64,000 nucleotides of DNA. Source: an uncultured delta proteobacterium (GTDB lineage: Bacteria > Myxococcota_A > Polyangia > Polyangiales > Polyangiaceae). Each line of letters begins with the position of its first letter. Position 1 is the stretch's first letter. Below the pieces are notes generated by a model, which made no database searches, was not told where the DNA came from, and saw only the letters and a list, made by a program, of their open reading frames with translations. Both the position numbers and the translations under genes were made by a program. The DNA is taken from the NCBI GenBank assembly GCA_963716725.1, contig CAVQUB010000002.1, forward strand, positions 160,001-224,000, in the 5' to 3' direction. Below, piece by piece: positions 3,001-38,267 of the stretch.

Positions 3001-3595
3001 CGGCCGACAGATCGCCTTCTTGCGCCTCCCTCGCGCGCTCTTCGTAGAGCGCGGCGAGTCGGAACATGCCGTCCGGCGTGGCCGACGGGTGCGCGTTTTC
3101 TCCGCTGTACAGCGCGATGAACGCCTCGAGGCGCTTGATGGCCTCGGCGCGCGCCTCTCGCAGGCCCTTCTTCTCGATGCCGATCTCGCGATCGAGGGTG
3201 TTCAGGATCCGCCGGCGGCGCTCTTCGTAGTGGTGGCGCACGATCATGGTGAGCGTGTCGCGGAACTCCTTGGCGCCCTTCTCGTACTCCTTGGCCTCTT
3301 GCTTCAGGACCTCGTAGGCCTTGAGTTGCCCCGCGCTGGGGGGAGCCGCGGGGGGCGCGCCCTTCTTGATCCGAATGTCCGGCGCCGTCGCGCCGGGGGT
3401 GGTCGGCGTCGCGGCGGCCGCGGAGGCCGCCGGCAACGCGCCGGCGCTGGGCGTGGCGGACGCAGAGGGCGCCGCCGAGCCTGCGGGAGGCGCGGCGGGC
3501 GGGGCGGCGGGCTGGGTGGCGGCCACCGAGGGAATGACCAGGGTCCCGGCCATCGCGCCGAGCAGGAGCCAGTTCCGAGGAGCGCGGCGGATCAC
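1..3595 (-). CDS. Large secreted TPR-repeat protein, GltD/AgmU-like; 3' end runs off the window
   Basis: Absent from the ORF track because it has no stop in the window. GTG at 3595 overlaps the upstream stop (GTGA). Reads MIRRAPRNWLLLGAMAGTLVIPSVAA (signal peptide), a Pro/Ala linker, then TPR-like helices (PDGMFRLAALYEE, AAVHYFLGHAY). The long + strand ORF 503-3907 is its antisense shadow. Confidence 0.8.
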   Translation of the reverse strand, partial: MIRRAPRNWLLLGAMAGTLVIPSVAATQPAAPPAAPPAGSAAPSASATPSAGALPAASAAAATPTTPGATAPDIRIKKGAPPAAPPSAGQLKAYEVLKQEAKEYEKGAKEFRDTLTMIVRHHYEERRRRILNTLDREIGIEKKGLREARAEAIKRLEAFIALYSGENAHPSATPDGMFRLAALYEERAREAQEGDLSAGLEPAITLYRRIIDEYPQYEEMAAVHYFLGHAYTDSAKLDEGQQAWRALVCNNRYQVKPDKKDAGKIELQPLEQDHDDKFWTDWMNKHPVPLDGGALGKAAKKPAPKPVAKGKAKGAPVGTAEEELTFRDPYPLDCKALPQDLRPGEDPRYMAEIWWQIGNNHFDQIDPKGGPYNLNRAVSAYQHSMQFKKPPVYGVSMYKQAWTYFKQQRYKTAVDEFVKLLHHADELEAKTGDPGADFRQEAFTYIAGSLTYVDFEGPPGDNPYIPRNDVLDTEPNPLIAEEKMAIGIQRVQDPALIPQDKKWSVEIYKALAQEYIEITQNRNAIATLEITLKKFPMDRDAPVMQNRVADLYDQLTRLAPEGSPAKAEAASKALEARTKLAAYVGATPWTDANRDDPEALAQAEQLVKGGLRRAAADHTNAGRIFYNRALELTNPAEQKAQIEKAVDEYRMAETGWGGYLNQDPNALDAYESKFWLADARYWVVVLQVAINRSPSPTEVQRAREAAVAVRDSNEDDKYLQPAGYYVVTIAEKVLEDEYRKHEDSKGAQGLAKRDEVRFNGEDPNTRTVIKDPLPTQVLDAVKARDEYNARVPLDRDAKQNGLLYAFQNAEYFFVYGDFAGAKPRYQAMYDQHCGKNEWGYKSWDKLMSMALLERDNPASKKLTEGKSCAYSEETKKAEEDKRNPIRQGLAYKDAAELFDKARAMPDGPERQKTWRAAAVAYKTALDAAPGRDEAPEAAMNGAYAYKQVGEYDKAIEMYELFISKYGSDTMLARLKNGDTKAKPPVLAEPKKYEERVKFLKDAYDALAGSYVLFFDYPKAAQTFDKISSIEHFQPTARRESARQALSLYSSLGDQSAMQKARDRFKNLGASPKETAEVDYIIASSDLKKWDEYSPDTGANATARKNAQNSMMNYYDANRKKPEAAQFVVHAAYNVAKTKSASDAGDTNKWWKATMDAFDAYKKVAPAKDGKNSAIGSPEASMAAQGEYTMLDQEITKKF

Positions 3596-6054
3596 AGCTC
3601 ACCTCCGGCGTCGTCGAGCACTTCTCTCAACTCGTCATTGAGGTTCTGCTCTTCGCGCGCGCGCTCCCGTTGCAGATTTCGGACACGCATCAGCTGCTCT
3701 TCTCGCACTTCCCAGGCATGTTGGACGATGCCGACGTCCGCTCGAAGCACGATGCTCTTGAGCCGGTCGCGCACCAGGGCGAAATTCTTCATGGCGAGCT
3801 CACCCACGAGCAGCCGAGCCTGCTCGTCGAGCTCGTCGAGGTTGGCCGCGAACTTTTCGAGGGCGGCGGCCTCTTTGTCGACCTGCTCGCGCAGGGTCTG
3901 GGCCTGAACGTCGGCCTCGCGTTCGAGCCTGGCTTTGGTCTTCTCCAGGGTGTCGTCGACGGTGTCGGCCCGACGCAGGATTGGCCTGATCTGCCGGGCG
4001 TAGTCGGCCGCCCCAGAATCGCCGCCGGCAGCGACCAGCTCCACCTCGCGATTGAAGACCTCGCGGAAGCGTCGCCGAACCCGATCGTCCTCGACATAGC
4101 GCTGATCGCCGAAGCCGACCTGCACGCGACCCATCTCCACGACCTCGCGGTACTCCGTGATTCGCTTCTTGTAGGCCGCGAGGTCTCGCTCGTTCGCGGC
4201 GATCTCGGCCTGGAAGCGCTGGCGGCTCGTGGGGTCGCTGGTGACACCGAATTTGTCGGCGTCCTTCAGCACGCGCTTGAGACCGTTCACGATGGCGTGC
4301 AGCTTGTCCGACTCGAGCTCGAGTTGCTGCAGCCGCTGGCTGACCGTGTTCCACTGCTTCTCGCCGGAGGACTCACGTCTCGCGAAGTCACCCGAGCTCA
4401 CGGGCAGCTGCTCCATGCGCCGCATCAACGCGCGGCGTTCGGCGCGCACCTTCTCGAGCTCGCCGCTGACGCTGCCGGCCTCGTCGTCCATGCCCGCCGC
4501 CAAGGTCCGCCGCGCTTGTCCGGACTTGTTGAGCAAGCCGAGCGCTTGCTCCATCGCCGCGACAAGCTCCGGAAATGCCCGCATGCGGGTGCCCGCGCCG
4601 AGCACCGCGTTGAGCTTCGTCACCAGGCGTTTGGACTTGCGGATCAGGTCGCGGGAAGCAGTGACGTCGTCGATGACGCCGAAGGCGCGATCGTTCTCCG
4701 CCTCTTCTCGCGCCCACTGGATCACGACCGGCGACAGGCCGCCCTTTTCGGTGCCGAGCTGCTCTCCCACGAGCTTGTCGTAATAAGCGGCGGGATCTTG
4801 AGTATCGGCGAGGAAGGTCGCGACCTGCTCGCGGATGGGGTCGAAGCGGCTGCGCACGCTCTTGTAGAGAGTGAGTGCCTTGTCGAACTGCCCGGAGCGA
4901 AGCATCAGGTCGGCACGCAGCAGCGAACCGTCGGCGAACCTCAGGTTCTCGGGATCGGTCACGGTCAAGACTTCGAGCGCGCGCTGCGCGCGCTGGTAGT
5001 CGCCGAGTCGAACGTAGACCCACGCGAGCTCGTAGAGCATGCCCGAGAACTCGGGGCTCTTGCGATCGACGTGGCTGTAGGCGTCGGCAGCGTCGAGGAA
5101 GTTGTCGGTCTCGTAGAACAACCGCCCCACTGCCATCCAGGCCAAGTCGATCACGTGGCGCTGCGCGTCAGTCTCGGCCTTCATGCGGGTCACGCGGCGG
5201 AACTGCTCGATGGCCGCGGCGTAGCGCGCGGTGGGCACCGCCTCCACCGTGCCCTTGGTGACGATGCTGGCCGTCTCTTTGTCGACCTTCTCGGTCGCCT
5301 CGTCGACCACGGGCGTGGCCTGTTTCACGAGGATGACGCCCAGAAGGTACTGAGCCTGCAGACCCCAGGCGCCGGTGGTGGACACGTTGCCGATGGACGC
5401 CTTCGCTCCGTCGTAGTCCTTCTTTGCAAAAAGCGCCTTGCCACGGGCGTAGGGCAGGGAACCGGTGCTGTCCGAGGTGGGGAGTGAGGACAGCTTCGCA
5501 AAGACCTCGTCCAGGATCTCGAAGTTCTGCGTGCGCAGGGACACGTCCACCAGGCGGCCGACGGCGCGCCCGGCGTAGCTGTCGAAGGGACTCACCGAGG
5601 CCTTCTCGAGGATCTCGCGGTAGGCGCGGCGAGCCGAGAGGAACTGCTTGGTCTGAAAGTAGCATTCGCCGAGATAAAAGAGCGCGTCCGCCTGAGACGC
5701 CGAGTCGGCGCGACCCTGCCGACCGAGCTCGACGACCTGGGAGAACACCTCGATGGCCCGAGCGTAGTCCTTGTTGCGGAAGAGGATGTCGCCCGCGGCG
5801 ATGCGCTGCGCCGGTGTCAGCTTCTGTTTGGTCGCTCGCGCGGCGGCCTTCTGCACGTTTCCGAGGCCGCCCTCGACGCCGGCGATGGCCGATTCGGCGT
5901 TCGCTCGGGCCTCTGCGGCGCTCACGGCATTCGCTGGCGCCGTGAACGCGAGGCCCACCAGGGCTGCTCCCAGAGCGATGAAGCGGGGCGAGCCGGCGCC
6001 CAGCAAGGAGAGCCAGCCGGCGCGCGGCGAAGCTCCGAGTCCGATCTGCATCAC
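3592..6054 (-). CDS. Secreted TPR/coiled-coil protein, GltC-like
   Basis: Signal peptide, TPR motifs (ALFYLGECYF, LAWMAVGRLFYE, MLYELAWVYV) and a coiled-coil C-terminus; translationally coupled to both neighbours. Confidence 0.8.
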   Translation of the reverse strand: MMQIGLGASPRAGWLSLLGAGSPRFIALGAALVGLAFTAPANAVSAAEARANAESAIAGVEGGLGNVQKAAARATKQKLTPAQRIAAGDILFRNKDYARAIEVFSQVVELGRQGRADSASQADALFYLGECYFQTKQFLSARRAYREILEKASVSPFDSYAGRAVGRLVDVSLRTQNFEILDEVFAKLSSLPTSDSTGSLPYARGKALFAKKDYDGAKASIGNVSTTGAWGLQAQYLLGVILVKQATPVVDEATEKVDKETASIVTKGTVEAVPTARYAAAIEQFRRVTRMKAETDAQRHVIDLAWMAVGRLFYETDNFLDAADAYSHVDRKSPEFSGMLYELAWVYVRLGDYQRAQRALEVLTVTDPENLRFADGSLLRADLMLRSGQFDKALTLYKSVRSRFDPIREQVATFLADTQDPAAYYDKLVGEQLGTEKGGLSPVVIQWAREEAENDRAFGVIDDVTASRDLIRKSKRLVTKLNAVLGAGTRMRAFPELVAAMEQALGLLNKSGQARRTLAAGMDDEAGSVSGELEKVRAERRALMRRMEQLPVSSGDFARRESSGEKQWNTVSQRLQQLELESDKLHAIVNGLKRVLKDADKFGVTSDPTSRQRFQAEIAANERDLAAYKKRITEYREVVEMGRVQVGFGDQRYVEDDRVRRRFREVFNREVELVAAGGDSGAADYARQIRPILRRADTVDDTLEKTKARLEREADVQAQTLREQVDKEAAALEKFAANLDELDEQARLLVGELAMKNFALVRDRLKSIVLRADVGIVQHAWEVREEQLMRVRNLQRERAREEQNLNDELREVLDDAGGEL

Positions 6055-17055: not shown

Positions 17056-17511
17056 ATGGACGGTCGAGGATTTCCCATGGGCGAGCGCCCGGAGCGGCGC
17101 GCAGCACGGCGGGCAAACACCCTCAGCGCCCTCGACGAGCTGCTGGACGCCGTCCGGCGCAACAGCGACTTCCGGGCCCTGGCCGTGGCGGACTCCGCGG
17201 GGGTGCTGGTGGCAGGCTCGGGAGCCTTCGCGGAGTGCGAGGAGCTGGCCGCGTGGGCCCCGTTGGCGACCCGGCAAGCCGCCAAGGACGACCCTTCGAA
17301 GTCCCAGAAGGGGGACGACCCTTCGAAGTCCCAGAAGGGGGACACCGTGCCGACGCGCCTCGAGGTCGTGGCCCGCAAGATGCTAGTCCGGCGCCTGACC
17401 ATCGACGGCATCGAGGTCCTGCTCTGCGGGCACGGCGGGCAGAGCGACGCCCTGCGCCGCGCCGCCGTCGGCTGCGCGCGGATCCTGGGCCAACGGCGCC
17501 ACCCGAGCTGA
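17056..17511 (+). CDS. Small hypothetical protein, roadblock/LC7-like, with in-frame 2x27-bp insert
   Basis: ALAVADSAGVLVAGSG...EELAA pattern; DPSKSQKGD repeated twice; start could be 17077. Confidence 0.6.
   Translation: MDGRGFPMGERPERRAARRANTLSALDELLDAVRRNSDFRALAVADSAGVLVAGSGAFAECEELAAWAPLATRQAAKDDPSKSQKGDDPSKSQKGDTVPTRLEVVARKMLVRRLTIDGIEVLLCGHGGQSDALRRAAVGCARILGQRRHPS
17290..17343 (+). repeat. Two tandem copies of 27-bp unit GACCCTTCGAAGTCCCAGAAGGGGGAC
   Basis: Exact duplication; 22/27 identical to the unit at 33797-33904. Confidence 0.9.
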
Positions 17512-33515: not shown

Positions 33516-33749
33516 AGACTCAGAGCCTGTGAAAGAATCCCCGCCGCCCACGAAGGAAGGAGCACCGGCAGCGCTTCGGGGTCGCCGGCATGGGGCCGAG
33601 GCGCGCGAGAGACGCTGGGTCGGGTCTGTGCGGAGCCGCGAGCAGCAGTGTCGCGGACTGGGCGCGAGCGCTTCCGACCTGGACGCCTTCCCGCCCGGAG
33701 CTCTACCGCGCTCGAAGGCGAAACGGTCCTGCCAAGCGTCAGTTCCGGA

Positions 33750-33938
33750 CCCACTGCGCTGCCGCTGACAAGGACCTGAGGGGGCGTCCCGTGCACGACC
33801 CTTGGAAGTCCCTGGCGAGGGACGACCCTTGGAAGTCCCTGGCGAGGGACGACCCTTGGAAGTCCCTGGCGAGGGACGACCCTTGGAAGTCCCTGGCGAG
33901 GGACGCCCCTTGGAGGGGGGCGTGCAAGCACCGTCCCA
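33750..33938 (+). repeat. Left arm of ~80-bp inverted repeat flanking the HNH gene, interrupted by a 108-bp tandem array
   Basis: 33750-33796 matches the reverse complement of 35486-35531 at 39/47; 33906-33938 matches the reverse complement of 35451-35483 at 26/33. Confidence 0.85.
33797..33904 (+). repeat. Four exact tandem copies of 27-bp unit GACCCTTGGAAGTCCCTGGCGAGGGAC
   Basis: Read directly; each unit holds the hairpin GTCCCT-GGCG-AGGGAC; no unique spacers. Confidence 0.95.
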
Positions 33939-34169
33939 CGCTCGGCGTCACGAGGGAAAGAGCACCGCATCCCCATTTCTTTCTTGACGCGTTTCCAGGC
34001 GACTCGGGCTCGCACTTCGCCGGGCATGTCACCGAAGGCCTCTCTGTTGCGCGACGAAGCTCGCCCATCGTGTTTCGCTCGAGCGACGACGCGCGACGCG
34101 TTTGGACGCGTGAAACGCGCTCACCGTGTCGGCCGCGAGGCCAAAAAACAGCGTGTTATGCCAGAAAGC

Positions 34170-35453
34170 ATGCACGCTCTCTCTTCGGTCTCCGATCGCG
34201 AGCTTCGCGAGCGCCTCTCCTCCGCCGTGAGCGCCGAGCAGCTGGCTTCTGCCGACGTCATCTTCCACCTGGCGGAGCTCGACCGCCGAAAGCTCTACCT
34301 CGAGGACGCCTGCTCCTCACTCTTCGCGTACTGCGTGGAGCGGCTCGGCTACTCCGAGGACGGCGCGAGCAAGCGAGTCCGTGTCGCCCGCTTGGTTCTG
34401 CGTTTTCCCCAGGCCCTCGACGAGCTCGCGAGCGGCGCCATCCACCTGACCGGACTGTTCCTGCTCTCCGGGCACCTCACGGAAGACAACGCCGATCGAC
34501 TCATCGCCGAGGCTCGCGGCAAGTCGAAGCGGCAGCTCGAGGAGCTGCTCGCTCGGTGGGCGCCCCGGTCCGACGTACCGGCGACCATCACCCCGAGCGG
34601 GCCCGAGCCAGCTCGAGCGGAGTTATCAACAATGTCCGGGACAGGTGGCTCCGAGCTGTCGGCGCCGCCGCCATCGGCGCACCGTCCTCGTGTCGAGCCG
34701 CTCTCGGCCACGAGCTTCCGCGTGGAATTCACCGCCAGTGCCACGCTCCGCGACAAGCTCGAACACGCCCGGAACCTCCTCAGCCACGCCGTGCCGAGCG
34801 GGGATCTCGCGACCCTGATCGAGCGAGCCATCGATCAGCTCATCGCCGTGGAGACGAAGCGCCGCGCGGGCGCGGGCCAGCCACGCAAGCGCCGTGAAAC
34901 TCGCGCCGGCTCGCGCCACGTGCCGGTGGAGGTCCAGCGCGCGGTGCGGGAGCGGGATGGCAACCAGTGCACCTTCGTCGATGCCGAGGGACGCCGCTGC
35001 TCCGAAAATAGACCGTCCGGCCGGGCCGGAGGAGCGCCGTCCGCTGATGCGAACAGTCGCAAGGAGCCATCTCGAGTCAGGACGCTGAACACGAGTGGTT
35101 TCCTGACCATCGAGCACGTCGACCCGTACGCGATGGGAGGACCAACGACAGTGGATAACTGCTGCCTGCTTTGTTCGGCTCACAACGCCCACCGGGCGCG
35201 ACAGGTCTACGGCGAGCAGCACGTCCGGAAGAAGGTCTCGGAGGCTCGCGCGGGCCGGGAAGCGAGCGGTGTGTCTGCGGGGACTGCGGCCGAGCTGAAG
35301 AGCGAAGTGTTCGAGAAGGTGCTGGCGGCTCTGCTTCACTCGGGGTTCAAGCGGCACGAGGCGCGGCGAGCCCTCGAACAGGTGCGCTCGCTCGGAGTCG
35401 AGCCGCAGCTCGAGCCAGTGCTGCGCGGAGCGCTGGCGGTACTCACTCCCTGA
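34170..35453 (+). CDS. HNH endonuclease with DUF222-like helical N-terminus and RuvA-C-like tail
   Basis: HLAELDRRKLY...SSLFAYCVERLGYSE N-terminus; RDGNQCTF...RRC...EHVDPYAMGGPTTVDNCCLLCSAHN; tail VLAALLHSGFKRHEARRAL; start could be 34158. Confidence 0.85.
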   Translation: MHALSSVSDRELRERLSSAVSAEQLASADVIFHLAELDRRKLYLEDACSSLFAYCVERLGYSEDGASKRVRVARLVLRFPQALDELASGAIHLTGLFLLSGHLTEDNADRLIAEARGKSKRQLEELLARWAPRSDVPATITPSGPEPARAELSTMSGTGGSELSAPPPSAHRPRVEPLSATSFRVEFTASATLRDKLEHARNLLSHAVPSGDLATLIERAIDQLIAVETKRRAGAGQPRKRRETRAGSRHVPVEVQRAVRERDGNQCTFVDAEGRRCSENRPSGRAGGAPSADANSRKEPSRVRTLNTSGFLTIEHVDPYAMGGPTTVDNCCLLCSAHNAHRARQVYGEQHVRKKVSEARAGREASGVSAGTAAELKSEVFEKVLAALLHSGFKRHEARRALEQVRSLGVEPQLEPVLRGALAVLTP

Positions 35454-35531
35454 GACGGTTCGTGCACACCCCCGACAAAGGGGGGGTGCACGGGATGCCG
35501 CCTTTGGTCCCGGCAGCGGCAGCGCCGTGGG
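35451..35531 (-). repeat. Right arm of the inverted repeat flanking the HNH gene, with hairpin CGTGCACACCCCC...GGGGGGGTGCACG
   Basis: Begins at the HNH stop codon; reverse complement aligns with 33750-33938 once the tandem array is removed. Confidence 0.85.
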
Positions 35532-35561
35532 CACGAATGCCGACGGATAGAAGTGTTCGTG

Positions 35562-36828
35562 ATGAGCTCTTCACACTCAGATCCGAAACGCGGCGCCCGA
35601 CTTCGACAGGCCCATCGTGAGCAACTCGGCTGGGGGCGCATCGATCTGGACGCGCAGGTACCTCACGACCACCCCGTGCGTGCCATCGCCGCGGTGATCG
35701 ACCGCCTGGACCTCTCGAAGCTCTACGCTCGCATCGATGCACGCGACTCGAACCCCGGAGCGCCGGCCATCGACCCCAAGCTCTTGCTCAGCCTGTGGGT
35801 GTACGCCACCAGCGACGGCGAGAACAGCGCTCGGGAGATCCAGCGCCTGACCGAGCTGCACGCCGCCTATCGGTGGCTGTGCGGCGGGGTGAGGCTCAAC
35901 CACCACACGCTCAGCGACTTTCGCAGCCACAACGCCGAGGTGTTCGACGACCTGATCACGCAGGTGCTGGCCTTGCTCATGAGCCACGACCTGGTGGACC
36001 TCATGCGTGTCGCGCAGGACGGCACGCGCGTACGGGCCAGCGCCGGAGCGTGTTCTTTTCGCAAGGGCACCACGCTGGAGGCTCTGCGCCAGGAAGCTCG
36101 TGCACATCTGGCCGCGGTCACGGCAGACACCGAGAGCGGCTCGCGGCGAGCCGCGGCGCAGAAGCGTGCGGCCCAGGATCGCCTGGACCGGCTCGACGCG
36201 GCGCTCGCGCAGTTGCCCGGGGTCACGAAGACCAAGAGCAAGAGCGGCGCCAAGGACCCGACCCCTCGAGTGTCGACGACCAATCCGCAGGCACGGGTGA
36301 TGAAGATGGGCGACGGAGGATTCCGGCCCGCCTACAACGTGCAGCTCGCCACGACCGCCGACGACGCGCGGGTCATCGTCGGTGTCGCCGTCACCCACCG
36401 CGGCAGCGACATGGGCGAATCGACTCCGATGCTCGAGCAGATCGAGAAGCGGACGGGCGTCCGGCCACTAGAGCTCCTCGTCGATGGGGGATACGCGAAG
36501 CATGAAGCCATCGACGAAGCGGCCGCGCGCAACGTCACCGTCTACGCTCCGCTGCCCAAGCCCCGCGACGACGACGGCTCTGACCCTCACCGACCGAGGG
36601 ATACCGACAGCGCAGCCGTTGCCGCCTGGAGACAGCGCATGGCCACCGACGAGGCCAAGCAGAATCTACCGGCAACGGGCCGCGACCGCCGAGTCCGTCC
36701 ACGCGGACGCCAAAACGCACCGCGGGCTCGACTCGCTGACCCTGCGGGGACTCGACAAGGCACTGGCCAGCGTGACGCTCTTCGCGCTCACCTACGACAT
36801 CCTGCGCGCCATCACACTCGGCGTCTGA
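35562..36828 (+). pseudogene. IS1182-family transposase, frameshifted near the C-terminus
   Basis: DHPVRAI...GAPAIDPKLLL...YRWLCGG...HHTLSDFR; QDGTRVRASA; YNVQ; LVDGGY. An extra A at 36663-36664 moves IYRQRAATAE...LRGLDK into another frame ending at 36828. Confidence 0.88.
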
Positions 36829-36962
36829 CCCCGCCACCGCTCTGCTTCCGCGCTCGGACCACCCGAATCGCGTCGCGCCCCACGCGCTCCCGCCCTGCGC
36901 CTGGGACTCGCCCTCGCTCGATTTCCCGGCGGCGCACGCTCAACCGATTTCTTCTCACCCTC

Positions 36963-38263
<1,301 letters not shown>

Positions 38264-38267
<4 letters not shown>

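Follow-up and report, generated by a model that had tools for sequence, protein, structure and literature searches.

We analysed a 64-kb stretch of DNA at its full length (hereafter the window; all positions are those of the whole stretch) from an uncultured delta proteobacterium of the family Polyangiaceae (assembly GCA_963716725.1, contig CAVQUB010000002.1). Its G+C content was 68%. Two mobile elements lie in the window, one nested in the other. The inner element is a 1.8-kb cassette (positions about 33742-35541) made up of a promoter region and one gene for an HNH nuclease, enclosed by inverted arms of about 80-90 bp. It is nested in a 3.45-kb insertion sequence (IS) of the IS1182 family (33519-36966), where it occupies the space between the left IS end and the transposase gene. 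The original prediction, made from the sequence alone, had inferred a selfish cassette. The arm-bounded module of that description was confirmed; in the window, however, the cassette is not free-standing and is nested in the IS1182-family element. Coordinates of all features are given in Table 1.

Two nested mobile elements in the window

A repeat search of the window returned two inverted blocks, one pairing 33750-33767 with 35514-35531 (18 nt, 94%) and the other pairing 33772-33801 with 35481-35510 (30 nt, 80%). When a 27-bp tandem array within the left arm was spliced out by script, 65 of 82 columns were identical between the arms and the local alignment score was 36.5 (25.5 with the array kept). 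The same score was 11.3 +/- 1.2 for 200 dinucleotide shuffles and 11.8 +/- 1.1 for 130 pairs of the same geometry taken elsewhere in the window (maximum 15.5 in both controls), and 10.5 for the arms compared in direct orientation. The arms are not a chance match, and the two inverted copies of about 80 bp that had been predicted around the HNH gene are thus real. Two further details of that prediction also agreed with our data. Each arm holds a strong hairpin: the left one pairs ACGCCCC with GGGGCGT at 33903-33923, with GTGCA lengthening the stem across the array, and the right one pairs CGTGCACACCCCC (35461-35473) with GGGGGGGTGCACG (35480-35492) with a single A.G mismatch. Besides, the right arm begins at the HNH stop codon, whose TGA (35451-35453) forms its initial three bases. 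Judged by comparison with relatives, the arms reach about 8-10 nt further out, the left one to GTTCC..CCCAC and the right one to GTGGG.ACG.ATG.

The outer element was identified by its transposase, which matched the NCBIfam model NF033551 (IS1182) with 280.5 bits (cut-off 270, E 2.7e-83), and by its ends. Self-alignment of the window alone gave no significant terminal repeats for the IS (the ends match each other at 14 of 22 positions, a pair that is weak alone, with a score of 8), and the ends were found only through the JACPVJ paralogues. In three of these (L002, L003 and L005) pieces of a transposase of the same IS1182 family follow the HNH gene; homology among the paralogues begins at CTCAGAGGCTGTGAAAG, about 600 nt upstream of the HNH gene, and stops at the inverted copy of this sequence past the transposase remnants. 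The two ends are 18/22 identical in L005 (3396-3417 and 6351-6372), and L004 has lost the transposase and kept the right end. Because the ends in the window match those at the boundaries of the JACPVJ paralogues, the transposable unit of the window is the 3.45-kb IS. It adjoins the stop codons of a thioredoxin-rhodanese gene and of a convergent larC-like gene. The reading frame of the transposase is not intact: positions 436-487 of the model are off-frame relative to positions 3-423, with the switch near 36640-36660, owing to either a frameshift mutation or an assembly error. In L005 a tRNA gene (3302-3384) ends 12 nt before the left IS end; it was the only Rfam match in the 8 loci searched, and no Rfam family was found in the window.

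For the nuclease gene, the likelier start is the ATG at 34170 (427 aa), which fits both the alignment of homologues and an identical database protein (P0002). Among 8000 candidates scored, 565 proteins belonged to the family at E <= 0.001. All of 21 family members matched both PF01844 (HNH) and RuvA_C; the window protein itself was borderline for PF01844 (21.1-21.4 bits, cut-off 21.4). In the alignment with homologues, the HNH motif residues C271, C281, H320, N334, C339, H342 and N343 were invariant or nearly so. The label "DUF222-like" that the gene had been given did not hold, as the window protein had no match to Pfam DUF222 (PF02720), only 1 of the 21 members matched it (E 0.032), and PF02720 was absent among the best 120 relatives of the N-terminal domain, so that no link to DUF222 was obtained by that route. 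Among 50%-identity clusters, a profile of the N-terminal domain retrieved 18,067 representatives (E <= 0.001), of which 3,486 had E <= 1e-30.

In an AlphaFold model of the whole protein (predicted local distance difference test score, pLDDT, 83.8), residues 1-135 form an all-helical N-terminal domain, followed by a small middle domain, the HNH fold and a tail of three helices. When modelled by itself (pLDDT 93), the N-terminal domain had ParB/Noc DNA-binding domains as its top fold matches (probability 0.99 and 0.89, template modelling score 0.49-0.54, E 0.2-1.4). The protein is predicted to form a homodimer: the model scored 0.83, with 0.00 for the best of 3 controls, and this mark was reached by 20 of 30 proteins solved as one-chain pairs and by 1 of 23 solved as single chains, counts that are only rough since our own alignment was used. 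The dimer runs shared at least 80% of contacts with a partner pLDDT of at least 66, and the two chains are predicted to meet along the long N-terminal helix and the middle domain. A fold search with the whole protein against the PDB gave nothing with E below 0.2, and a profile search against PDB sequences gave only the RuvA C-terminal domain (E 0.006) and McrA (E 0.04); some relatives are named McrA in some database sources. Among the PADLOC defence models, 0 of 4 proteins had a real match, the sole hit (E 0.003) lying over the HNH motif. PHROGs returned generic HNH matches only, tblastn against a plasmid collection returned no match, and the protein atlas contained only clusters from within the family, from Myxococcota, Eiseniibacteriota and Bdellovibrionota.

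In most Myxococcota copies (window, L001-L046) the start codon is preceded, at about 10-14 nt, by CGTGTTATG or a close variant; TTGACG, about 170 nt upstream, is invariant. The distance of the CGTGTTATG motif from the start codon suggests that it is a promoter for a leaderless or nearly leaderless mRNA. A scan for sigma-70 promoters and intrinsic terminators found no promoter, and nothing at the arms. A structured leader RNA, such as an omega-RNA-like guide, was considered and rejected for lack of a consensus fold (-1.72 kcal/mol).

The window copy of the nuclease differs from its relatives in 29 extra residues between C281 and H320, which none of 20 aligned homologues has. They are encoded by a mini-element that is missing from P0003, a protein otherwise nearly identical to that of the window. 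Locus L023 has two copies of the mini-element (4158-4252 and 4933-5024); one is at the same site as in the window, and the other is at a different site in the opposite orientation and disrupts the frame. Since L007 and L008, which are 98% identical to L023, have neither copy, the same site in the HNH gene was hit independently. The window copy is probably inactive on both levels, because the mini-element sits in the HNH core and the transposase is frameshifted. The mini-element, of about 87 bp, starts with TAGACCGTCCGGCCGGGCCGGAGGA and includes the palindrome TCCGGCC.GGCCGGA, and P0003 resembles the window allele minus this element. Kinship of the mini-element with the arms or the IS ends was considered and rejected, with similarity at chance level; a CCGTCC motif in common was dropped.

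Table 1. Features of the nested elements and their surroundings in the window.
Feature	Position	Strand	Remarks
Left terminal inverted repeat of IS, CTCAGAGCCTGTGAAAGAATCC	33519-33540	+	4 nt past thioredoxin-rhodanese stop codon; matches JACPVJ left ends
Non-coding left IS segment, between terminal repeat and cassette	33541-33741		Partly alignable with L002-L005; not common to copies in ISAs1 context
Left arm of HNH cassette	33742-33938	+	Outer conserved 45 nt, then hairpin with tandem array in loop
27-bp x 4.4 tandem array in left-arm hairpin loop	33795-33914		No other copy has the array
Conserved leader / promoter region	33939-34169	+	Invariant TTGACG 33984-33989; CGTGTTATG motif 34152-34160, about 10 nt before likely start codon
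HNH nuclease gene, 427 aa	34170-35453	+	N-terminal all-alpha, middle, HNH and C-terminal RuvA_C-like domains; alternative in-frame ATG 34158
Mini-element, net +87 nt / +29 aa, in frame	35009-35099	+	Between first Cys pair and catalytic His of HNH motif
Right arm of cassette, inverted copy of left	35451-35541	-	Hairpin halves 35461-35473 and 35480-35492; begins at HNH stop codon
IS1182-family DDE transposase gene, apparent frameshift	35553-36828	+	Hidden Markov model positions 3-423 in frame of 35553; 436-487 in frame of open reading frame 36484-36828
Right terminal inverted repeat of IS, CGATTTCTTCTCACCCTCTCAC	36945-36966	-	Matches right ends of L002-L005; overlaps larC-like stop codon
larC-like gene, convergent	36963-38267	-	Pfam Ni_insertion, E 1e-122

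Arms and cassette in related genomes

One scan of species-representative genomes supplied the relatives, 78 loci in metagenome bins of Myxococcota and Acidobacteriota, to which a genome often contributed several. For 64 of them (14 partial gene matches were left out) the 700 nt before the gene were compared with the 500 nt after it, and the best inverted match was scored. Inverted scores reached 19 or more in 11 of the 64 loci; with direct orientation as the control, scores were 9-18 in 60 of the 64. A quick maximum-likelihood tree was built from 60 rows, without L023, L042 and L043, which have stop codons; in this tree, scores of 19 or higher fell in three clades. The original prediction had expected homologous HNH genes to carry inverted arms of their own; this was true of the window's clade and of its sister clade CBDCTZ, and untrue of DATDJP (8 rows), CBINHN (4 rows) and Acidobacteriota (18 rows), in which no score reached 19.

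Within the window's clade, the window copy was aligned with L001-L008 and L023 (10 members). The left arm is present in 10/10 and ends about 220-250 nt before the ATG. The right arm is complete in 7 of the 10, partial in L002 and L004 and missing in L001; it starts at the stop codon or 1-4 nt past it, and the geometry is the same throughout the clade. Among 12 arms with simple loops (11 distinct), the 10-bp stem was paired in 95.2% of cells, and controls slid along the alignment gave 30-68% pairing. Three of the ten stem pairs were changed on both sides (10 cells), and the covariation of the stem (0.262) was reached by 0 of 500 shuffles (0.098 +/- 0.026). As judged from this covariation, the hairpins are under structural selection, with the stem kept by compensatory changes. 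The 45 nt of the arm beyond the hairpin are also conserved, in inverted orientation, across genomes. Separately, the loops of the arm hairpins are insertion hot spots: they have gained small hairpins (CACCCCGTCGGGTG, TCCCCCGTCGGGGA) in L001, L002, L003 and L005 (for example, at about 3700-3760 and 5258-5338 in L002), a parallel to the tandem array of the window's left arm. L038 and L058 carry a deletion that starts in the hairpin loop and reaches the middle part of the HNH gene.

The limits of the cassette became apparent from its occurrence in a second IS family. In JAXLYN (L007, L008 and L023) the transposase gene that comes after the same arms and HNH gene belongs to the ISAs1 family; L007 has it complete (E 2.2e-25), and L008 and L023 have remnants of it. 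The left end of the JAXLYN unit differs from that of the IS1182-type units and is common to the JAKLKA copies. Between the IS1182 and ISAs1 contexts, homology is confined to the cassette, from GTTCC..CCCAC to GTGGG.ACG.ATG, which are the outer ends of the arms. Because homology starts and stops there, the arm-bounded unit is a discrete module; the same arms and gene stand just 5' of the transposase gene in two IS families, and the cassette is thus portable.

The CBDCTZ sister clade consists of at least 8 stand-alone units of about 2.25 kb, which have no transposase and lie between ordinary genes. They are bounded by terminal inverted repeats of 218-265 bp with 78-80% identity, unrelated in sequence to the arms of the window, and all copies of these repeats among the loci adjoin an HNH gene. 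A tRNA scan of 9 CBDCTZ loci found only one tRNA-Ser, in L015. When neighbours were scanned in 17 loci of other genomes (16 of them outside the window's clade; 76 open reading frames), a transposase was found in only 2, namely the one of L007 and an IS4 inserted in the left repeat of L025. The remaining neighbours were ordinary genes, such as those for LysR, sigma-70, ThiD, AcrB, RF3 and RecA. Several additional features were seen in CBDCTZ. The IS4-family element lies within the left terminal repeat of L025 (2166-3590) and also of L029, both of which are units without a right repeat, and just upstream in L025 there is a gene for a reverse transcriptase, matched by Pfam RVT_1, which may belong to a group II intron. 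Besides, a conserved block of about 85 nt lies 110-170 nt past the right terminal repeat in four units (L010 5840-5945, L011 5985-6062, L012 5895-5973 and L013 6049-6139), and part of it is similar, when inverted, to CATCCCCGCCCGGAAGTCGGGCCGG, with which the units of JAXLYN and JAKLKA start on the left.

Other relatives have simpler flanks. In the DASWG clade the gene is flanked on either side by only a short palindrome, CCGCCCCGGGGCGG, and DATDJP copies have unlike hairpins at corresponding places on the two sides. Acidobacteriota loci L049 (3784-3821 / 5032-5069) and L052 (3727-3773 / 4990-5036) have direct repeats of 38-47 nt that hold a hairpin. The distant relative L033 has four copies of the hairpin repeat ACCTGTCCNGGGACAGGT (2567-2584, 3506-3523, 3689-3706 and 5253-5270), three upstream and one downstream of the gene; this locus also contains a perfect 35-nt direct repeat (3496-3530 / 5243-5277), and the 3' end of its gene is tandemly duplicated.

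In the tree the paralogues group by genome, which points to lineage-specific expansion. All of 45 paralogue pairs had intact reading frames, with a ratio of nonsynonymous to synonymous substitutions (dN/dS) of 0.15-0.32 at dS 0.2-0.8, and the adjacent IS1182 transposase genes carry deletions while the HNH paralogues are intact. By this measure the nuclease is kept by selection while the transposases decay.

Possible movement of the cassette and rival explanations

Our preferred reading, to which we give about an even chance, is that the cassette is a nuclease module, portable and probably selfish, that is carried by insertion sequences. Palindromic parS sites are bound by ParB, and RuvB by RuvA domain III. 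In this reading, the HNH protein would act as a symmetric dimer whose ParB-like N-terminal domains read the palindromic arms and whose HNH domain makes nicks or cuts there or close by. The cassette would then be copied elsewhere by host recombination in a homing-like manner, not by the cut-and-paste of DDE enzymes, and the RuvA-domain-III-like tail may engage RuvB during copying. A cassette that landed in the non-coding 5' part of an IS would leave that IS functional and could then be carried by it, a likely route by which the window copy came to its present site. As this part is the one place where an insertion does not kill the IS, its use would explain why the module is found there in two families.

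If the cassette is moved by its own nuclease, selfish DNA would be using an enzyme class not known to drive transposition, and one mobile element would be using another as its vehicle. The same model would offer a testable account of why HNH genes in many copies, the mycobacterial 13E12 repeats among them, are maintained and remodel genomes. A bolder version, which we consider quite improbable, holds that a new class of prokaryotic mobile elements, without a DDE, HUH, serine or tyrosine enzyme, has the dimeric HNH protein itself as its recombinase: the ParB-like domain would recognise hairpin-bearing terminal repeats, the HNH domain would cut, and a branched intermediate would pass to RuvB via the RuvA-domain-III-like tail. 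If so, a large transposon-like family (18,067 cluster representatives) that also colonises insertion sequences would have been overlooked.

A number of observations weigh against a selfish module of this kind. To our knowledge there is no HNH-only transposase, the fold matches of the N-terminal domain to ParB/Noc do not reach significance, and the window copy carries an insertion in its catalytic core. No direct repeat that could be a target-site duplication was visible at the junctions of the window, L002, L003 and L005, and none could be made out at the CBDCTZ ends. No empty site came to light either, although no search aimed at one was made. The sole recent duplication seen, that of L008 and L023 (98% identical), includes the IS-level flanks and can therefore be credited to the DDE transposase. 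DATDJP, CBINHN and Acidobacteriota lack inverted arms, as described above; in DATDJP no inverted repeat was found in a search to +2.5 kb, with flanks common to the copies from -420 to +285. An arm is no closer to its own partner than to the partner in another copy. No solo arm was found within the window, and across the 78 loci, a sample biased to HNH neighbourhoods, the arm motif occurred only beside HNH genes or their remnants. Finally, the stand-alone copies are old (dS 0.2-0.7) and under purifying selection, a pattern that suits retained cargo or a host gene no less well than an active selfish element.

The last point leads to the main rival, which appears unlikely to us and is still the one to be taken most seriously: the nuclease would be useful cargo, for example type IV restriction-like or damage-induced, its hairpins would terminate or stabilise the mRNA and so insulate its expression, with no role in mobility, and movement would be due to the enclosing IS or to ordinary duplication. 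The most widely kept feature of the family is indeed a hairpin about 245 nt upstream and another just past the stop codon, not a shared sequence, as illustrated by the palindrome on both sides in DASWG and the unlike hairpins in DATDJP. The start of the right arm at the stop codon, a hairpin that covaries as an RNA or DNA structure would, old paralogues under purifying selection next to decaying transposase genes, and the name McrA of some relatives all agree with cargo of this sort. However, it does not account well for the 45 nt outside the hairpin that are conserved in inverted orientation across genomes, for CBDCTZ terminal repeats 220-265 bp long, for the copies, at least 8-13 in each genome, that occupy unrelated intergenic sites with no transposase, or for a cassette that is portable between IS families. 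Besides, no T-run follows the hairpins, the terminator scan was empty at the arms, and the only match to a known defence family was the weak one over the HNH motif. The second rival, mobilisation in trans by a DDE transposase, seems improbable. It would make the unit a non-autonomous cassette, similar to a mobile insertion cassette or a miniature inverted-repeat transposable element, with the arms serving as ends for a transposase encoded elsewhere and the HNH gene only as passenger. DDE elements usually end in terminal inverted repeats, a physical link to DDE transposase genes exists in the window's clade, and the outer ends of CBDCTZ units (GGCTGATAGGG) and the IS1182-type ends (AGAGGCTGTGAAAG) have a common AGGCTG core, which is a weak resemblance. 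Yet the arms of the window scored at best 10-12 against the ends of the enclosing IS, which is the chance level, the junctions lack the duplications that were looked for, DATDJP copies do without terminal repeats, and the passenger is always of the same HNH family across Myxococcota and Acidobacteriota despite differing ends.

There is also an explanation modelled on REPtrons, in which a gene for a transposase associated with repetitive extragenic palindromes (REPs), known as RAYT or TnpA-REP, is flanked by inverted REP palindromes. The original prediction had called the locus REPtron-like. If it were a true analogue, the HNH enzyme would disperse its palindromes through the genome as many solo copies, and this we regard as very improbable. 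The layout supports the comparison, in that the gene stands between inverted arms whose hairpins covary (0.262), which resembles a RAYT gene between inverted REPs as far as the consulted sources describe it, and the cluster of four ACCTGTCCNGGGACAGGT hairpin repeats around the gene of L033 is reminiscent of REPs. The dispersed palindromes were not found: neither the window nor, within the stated bias, the 78 loci contained the arm motif away from HNH genes or their remnants, and all CBDCTZ terminal-repeat copies lie beside HNH genes.

Even when read conservatively, the results define a large unannotated family of proteins with ParB-like, HNH and RuvA_C-like domains and a conserved gene-plus-hairpin architecture. 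The family explains many assembly breaks in Myxococcota metagenome bins, where many relatives are found on contigs of 1-5 kb, and exact boundaries are now available for annotating the window.

Relation to described systems

A search of the literature found no prior description of HNH genes flanked by inverted repeats or of an HNH passenger in IS1182. We rate the arm-bounded HNH module as a variant of selfish or multi-copy HNH nuclease genes. The terms transporter IS and mobile insertion cassette come from the ISfinder literature, and the window resembles such elements in that an extra gene lies between the left end and the transposase gene of an IS1182-family element; L004 and L008 similarly are derivatives that kept the ends and lost the transposase. 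Here, however, the passenger has inverted boundaries of its own, recurs in a second IS family and has relatives that stand alone. A mobile insertion cassette also has ends like those of a resident IS whose transposase moves it in trans, and the arms had only the score of 10-12 with the ends of the enclosing IS. Free-standing HNH homing genes are comparable as solitary HNH genes with their own promoter that behave as selfish units and increase in copy number. Homing genes are not known to have inverted repeats at their ends, and their spread is into one cognate site, whereas the present units have such repeats and occupy unrelated intergenic regions.

The similarity to REPtrons is that one nuclease gene lies between inverted, hairpin-bearing repeats, which differ between gene lineages. 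The enzymes are different, as Pfam and NCBIfam assign only HNH (beta-beta-alpha-metal) and RuvA_C-like domains to the present protein, not an HUH/Y1 tyrosine transposase. The arms are about 80-260 bp long in comparison with 20-40 bp for REPs, and no dispersed solo copies accompany them in the window or the 78 loci. The HNH genes are multi-copy, and RAYTs are described as single-copy in the abstract on RAREFAN.

The nearest described case is the 13E12 (REP13E12, DUF222-HNH) repeat family of Mycobacterium. According to the accessible text of two reports, M. tuberculosis has 19 copies, which are damage/LexA-induced and form an inversion hot spot (PMC13157036, PMC10589994). Both families are multi-copy HNH nucleases with an all-helical N-terminal domain, and 13E12 is regarded as repetitive DNA of unknown mobility. 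They differ in phylum and in the Pfam DUF222 domain, which the window protein does not match, and the same texts do not mention for 13E12 the RuvA_C-like tail and inverted arms of the present family.

We also considered whether the arms are CGTC-tagged REPs, palindromic repeats that carry a CGTC tag and, according to their authors, apparently have no dedicated transposase. In the portion of the report that was available, their stems are 8-9 bp long and begin with A/T pairs, their loops measure 4-5 nt, and a CCA tail stands at the opposite end (Di Nocera et al. 2013, PMC3733652). The arms studied here likewise have a nearly invariant CGTC a few bases from the stem. Their stems, however, are GC-rich and 9-11 bp long, with loops of 6-10 nt, and the available portion neither reports CGTC-tagged REPs from Myxococcota nor mentions HNH (PMC3733652). 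As stem, loop and tail differ, the arms do not belong to the same family.

Two minor observations concern tandem repeats in the window. The unit of the array in the left-arm loop is ACGACCCTTGGAAGTCCCTGGCGAGGG, and a related 27-bp x 2.1 array occurs 16 kb away at 17286-17343, with 87% identity over 47 nt (E 2e-7); it lies within long open reading frames and would encode a 9-residue repeat. Beyond the IS, the minus-strand larC-like gene has an 18-bp x 5.8 tandem repeat, TGCCCGTGCTCGTGCGTG, at its 5' end (38155-38262).

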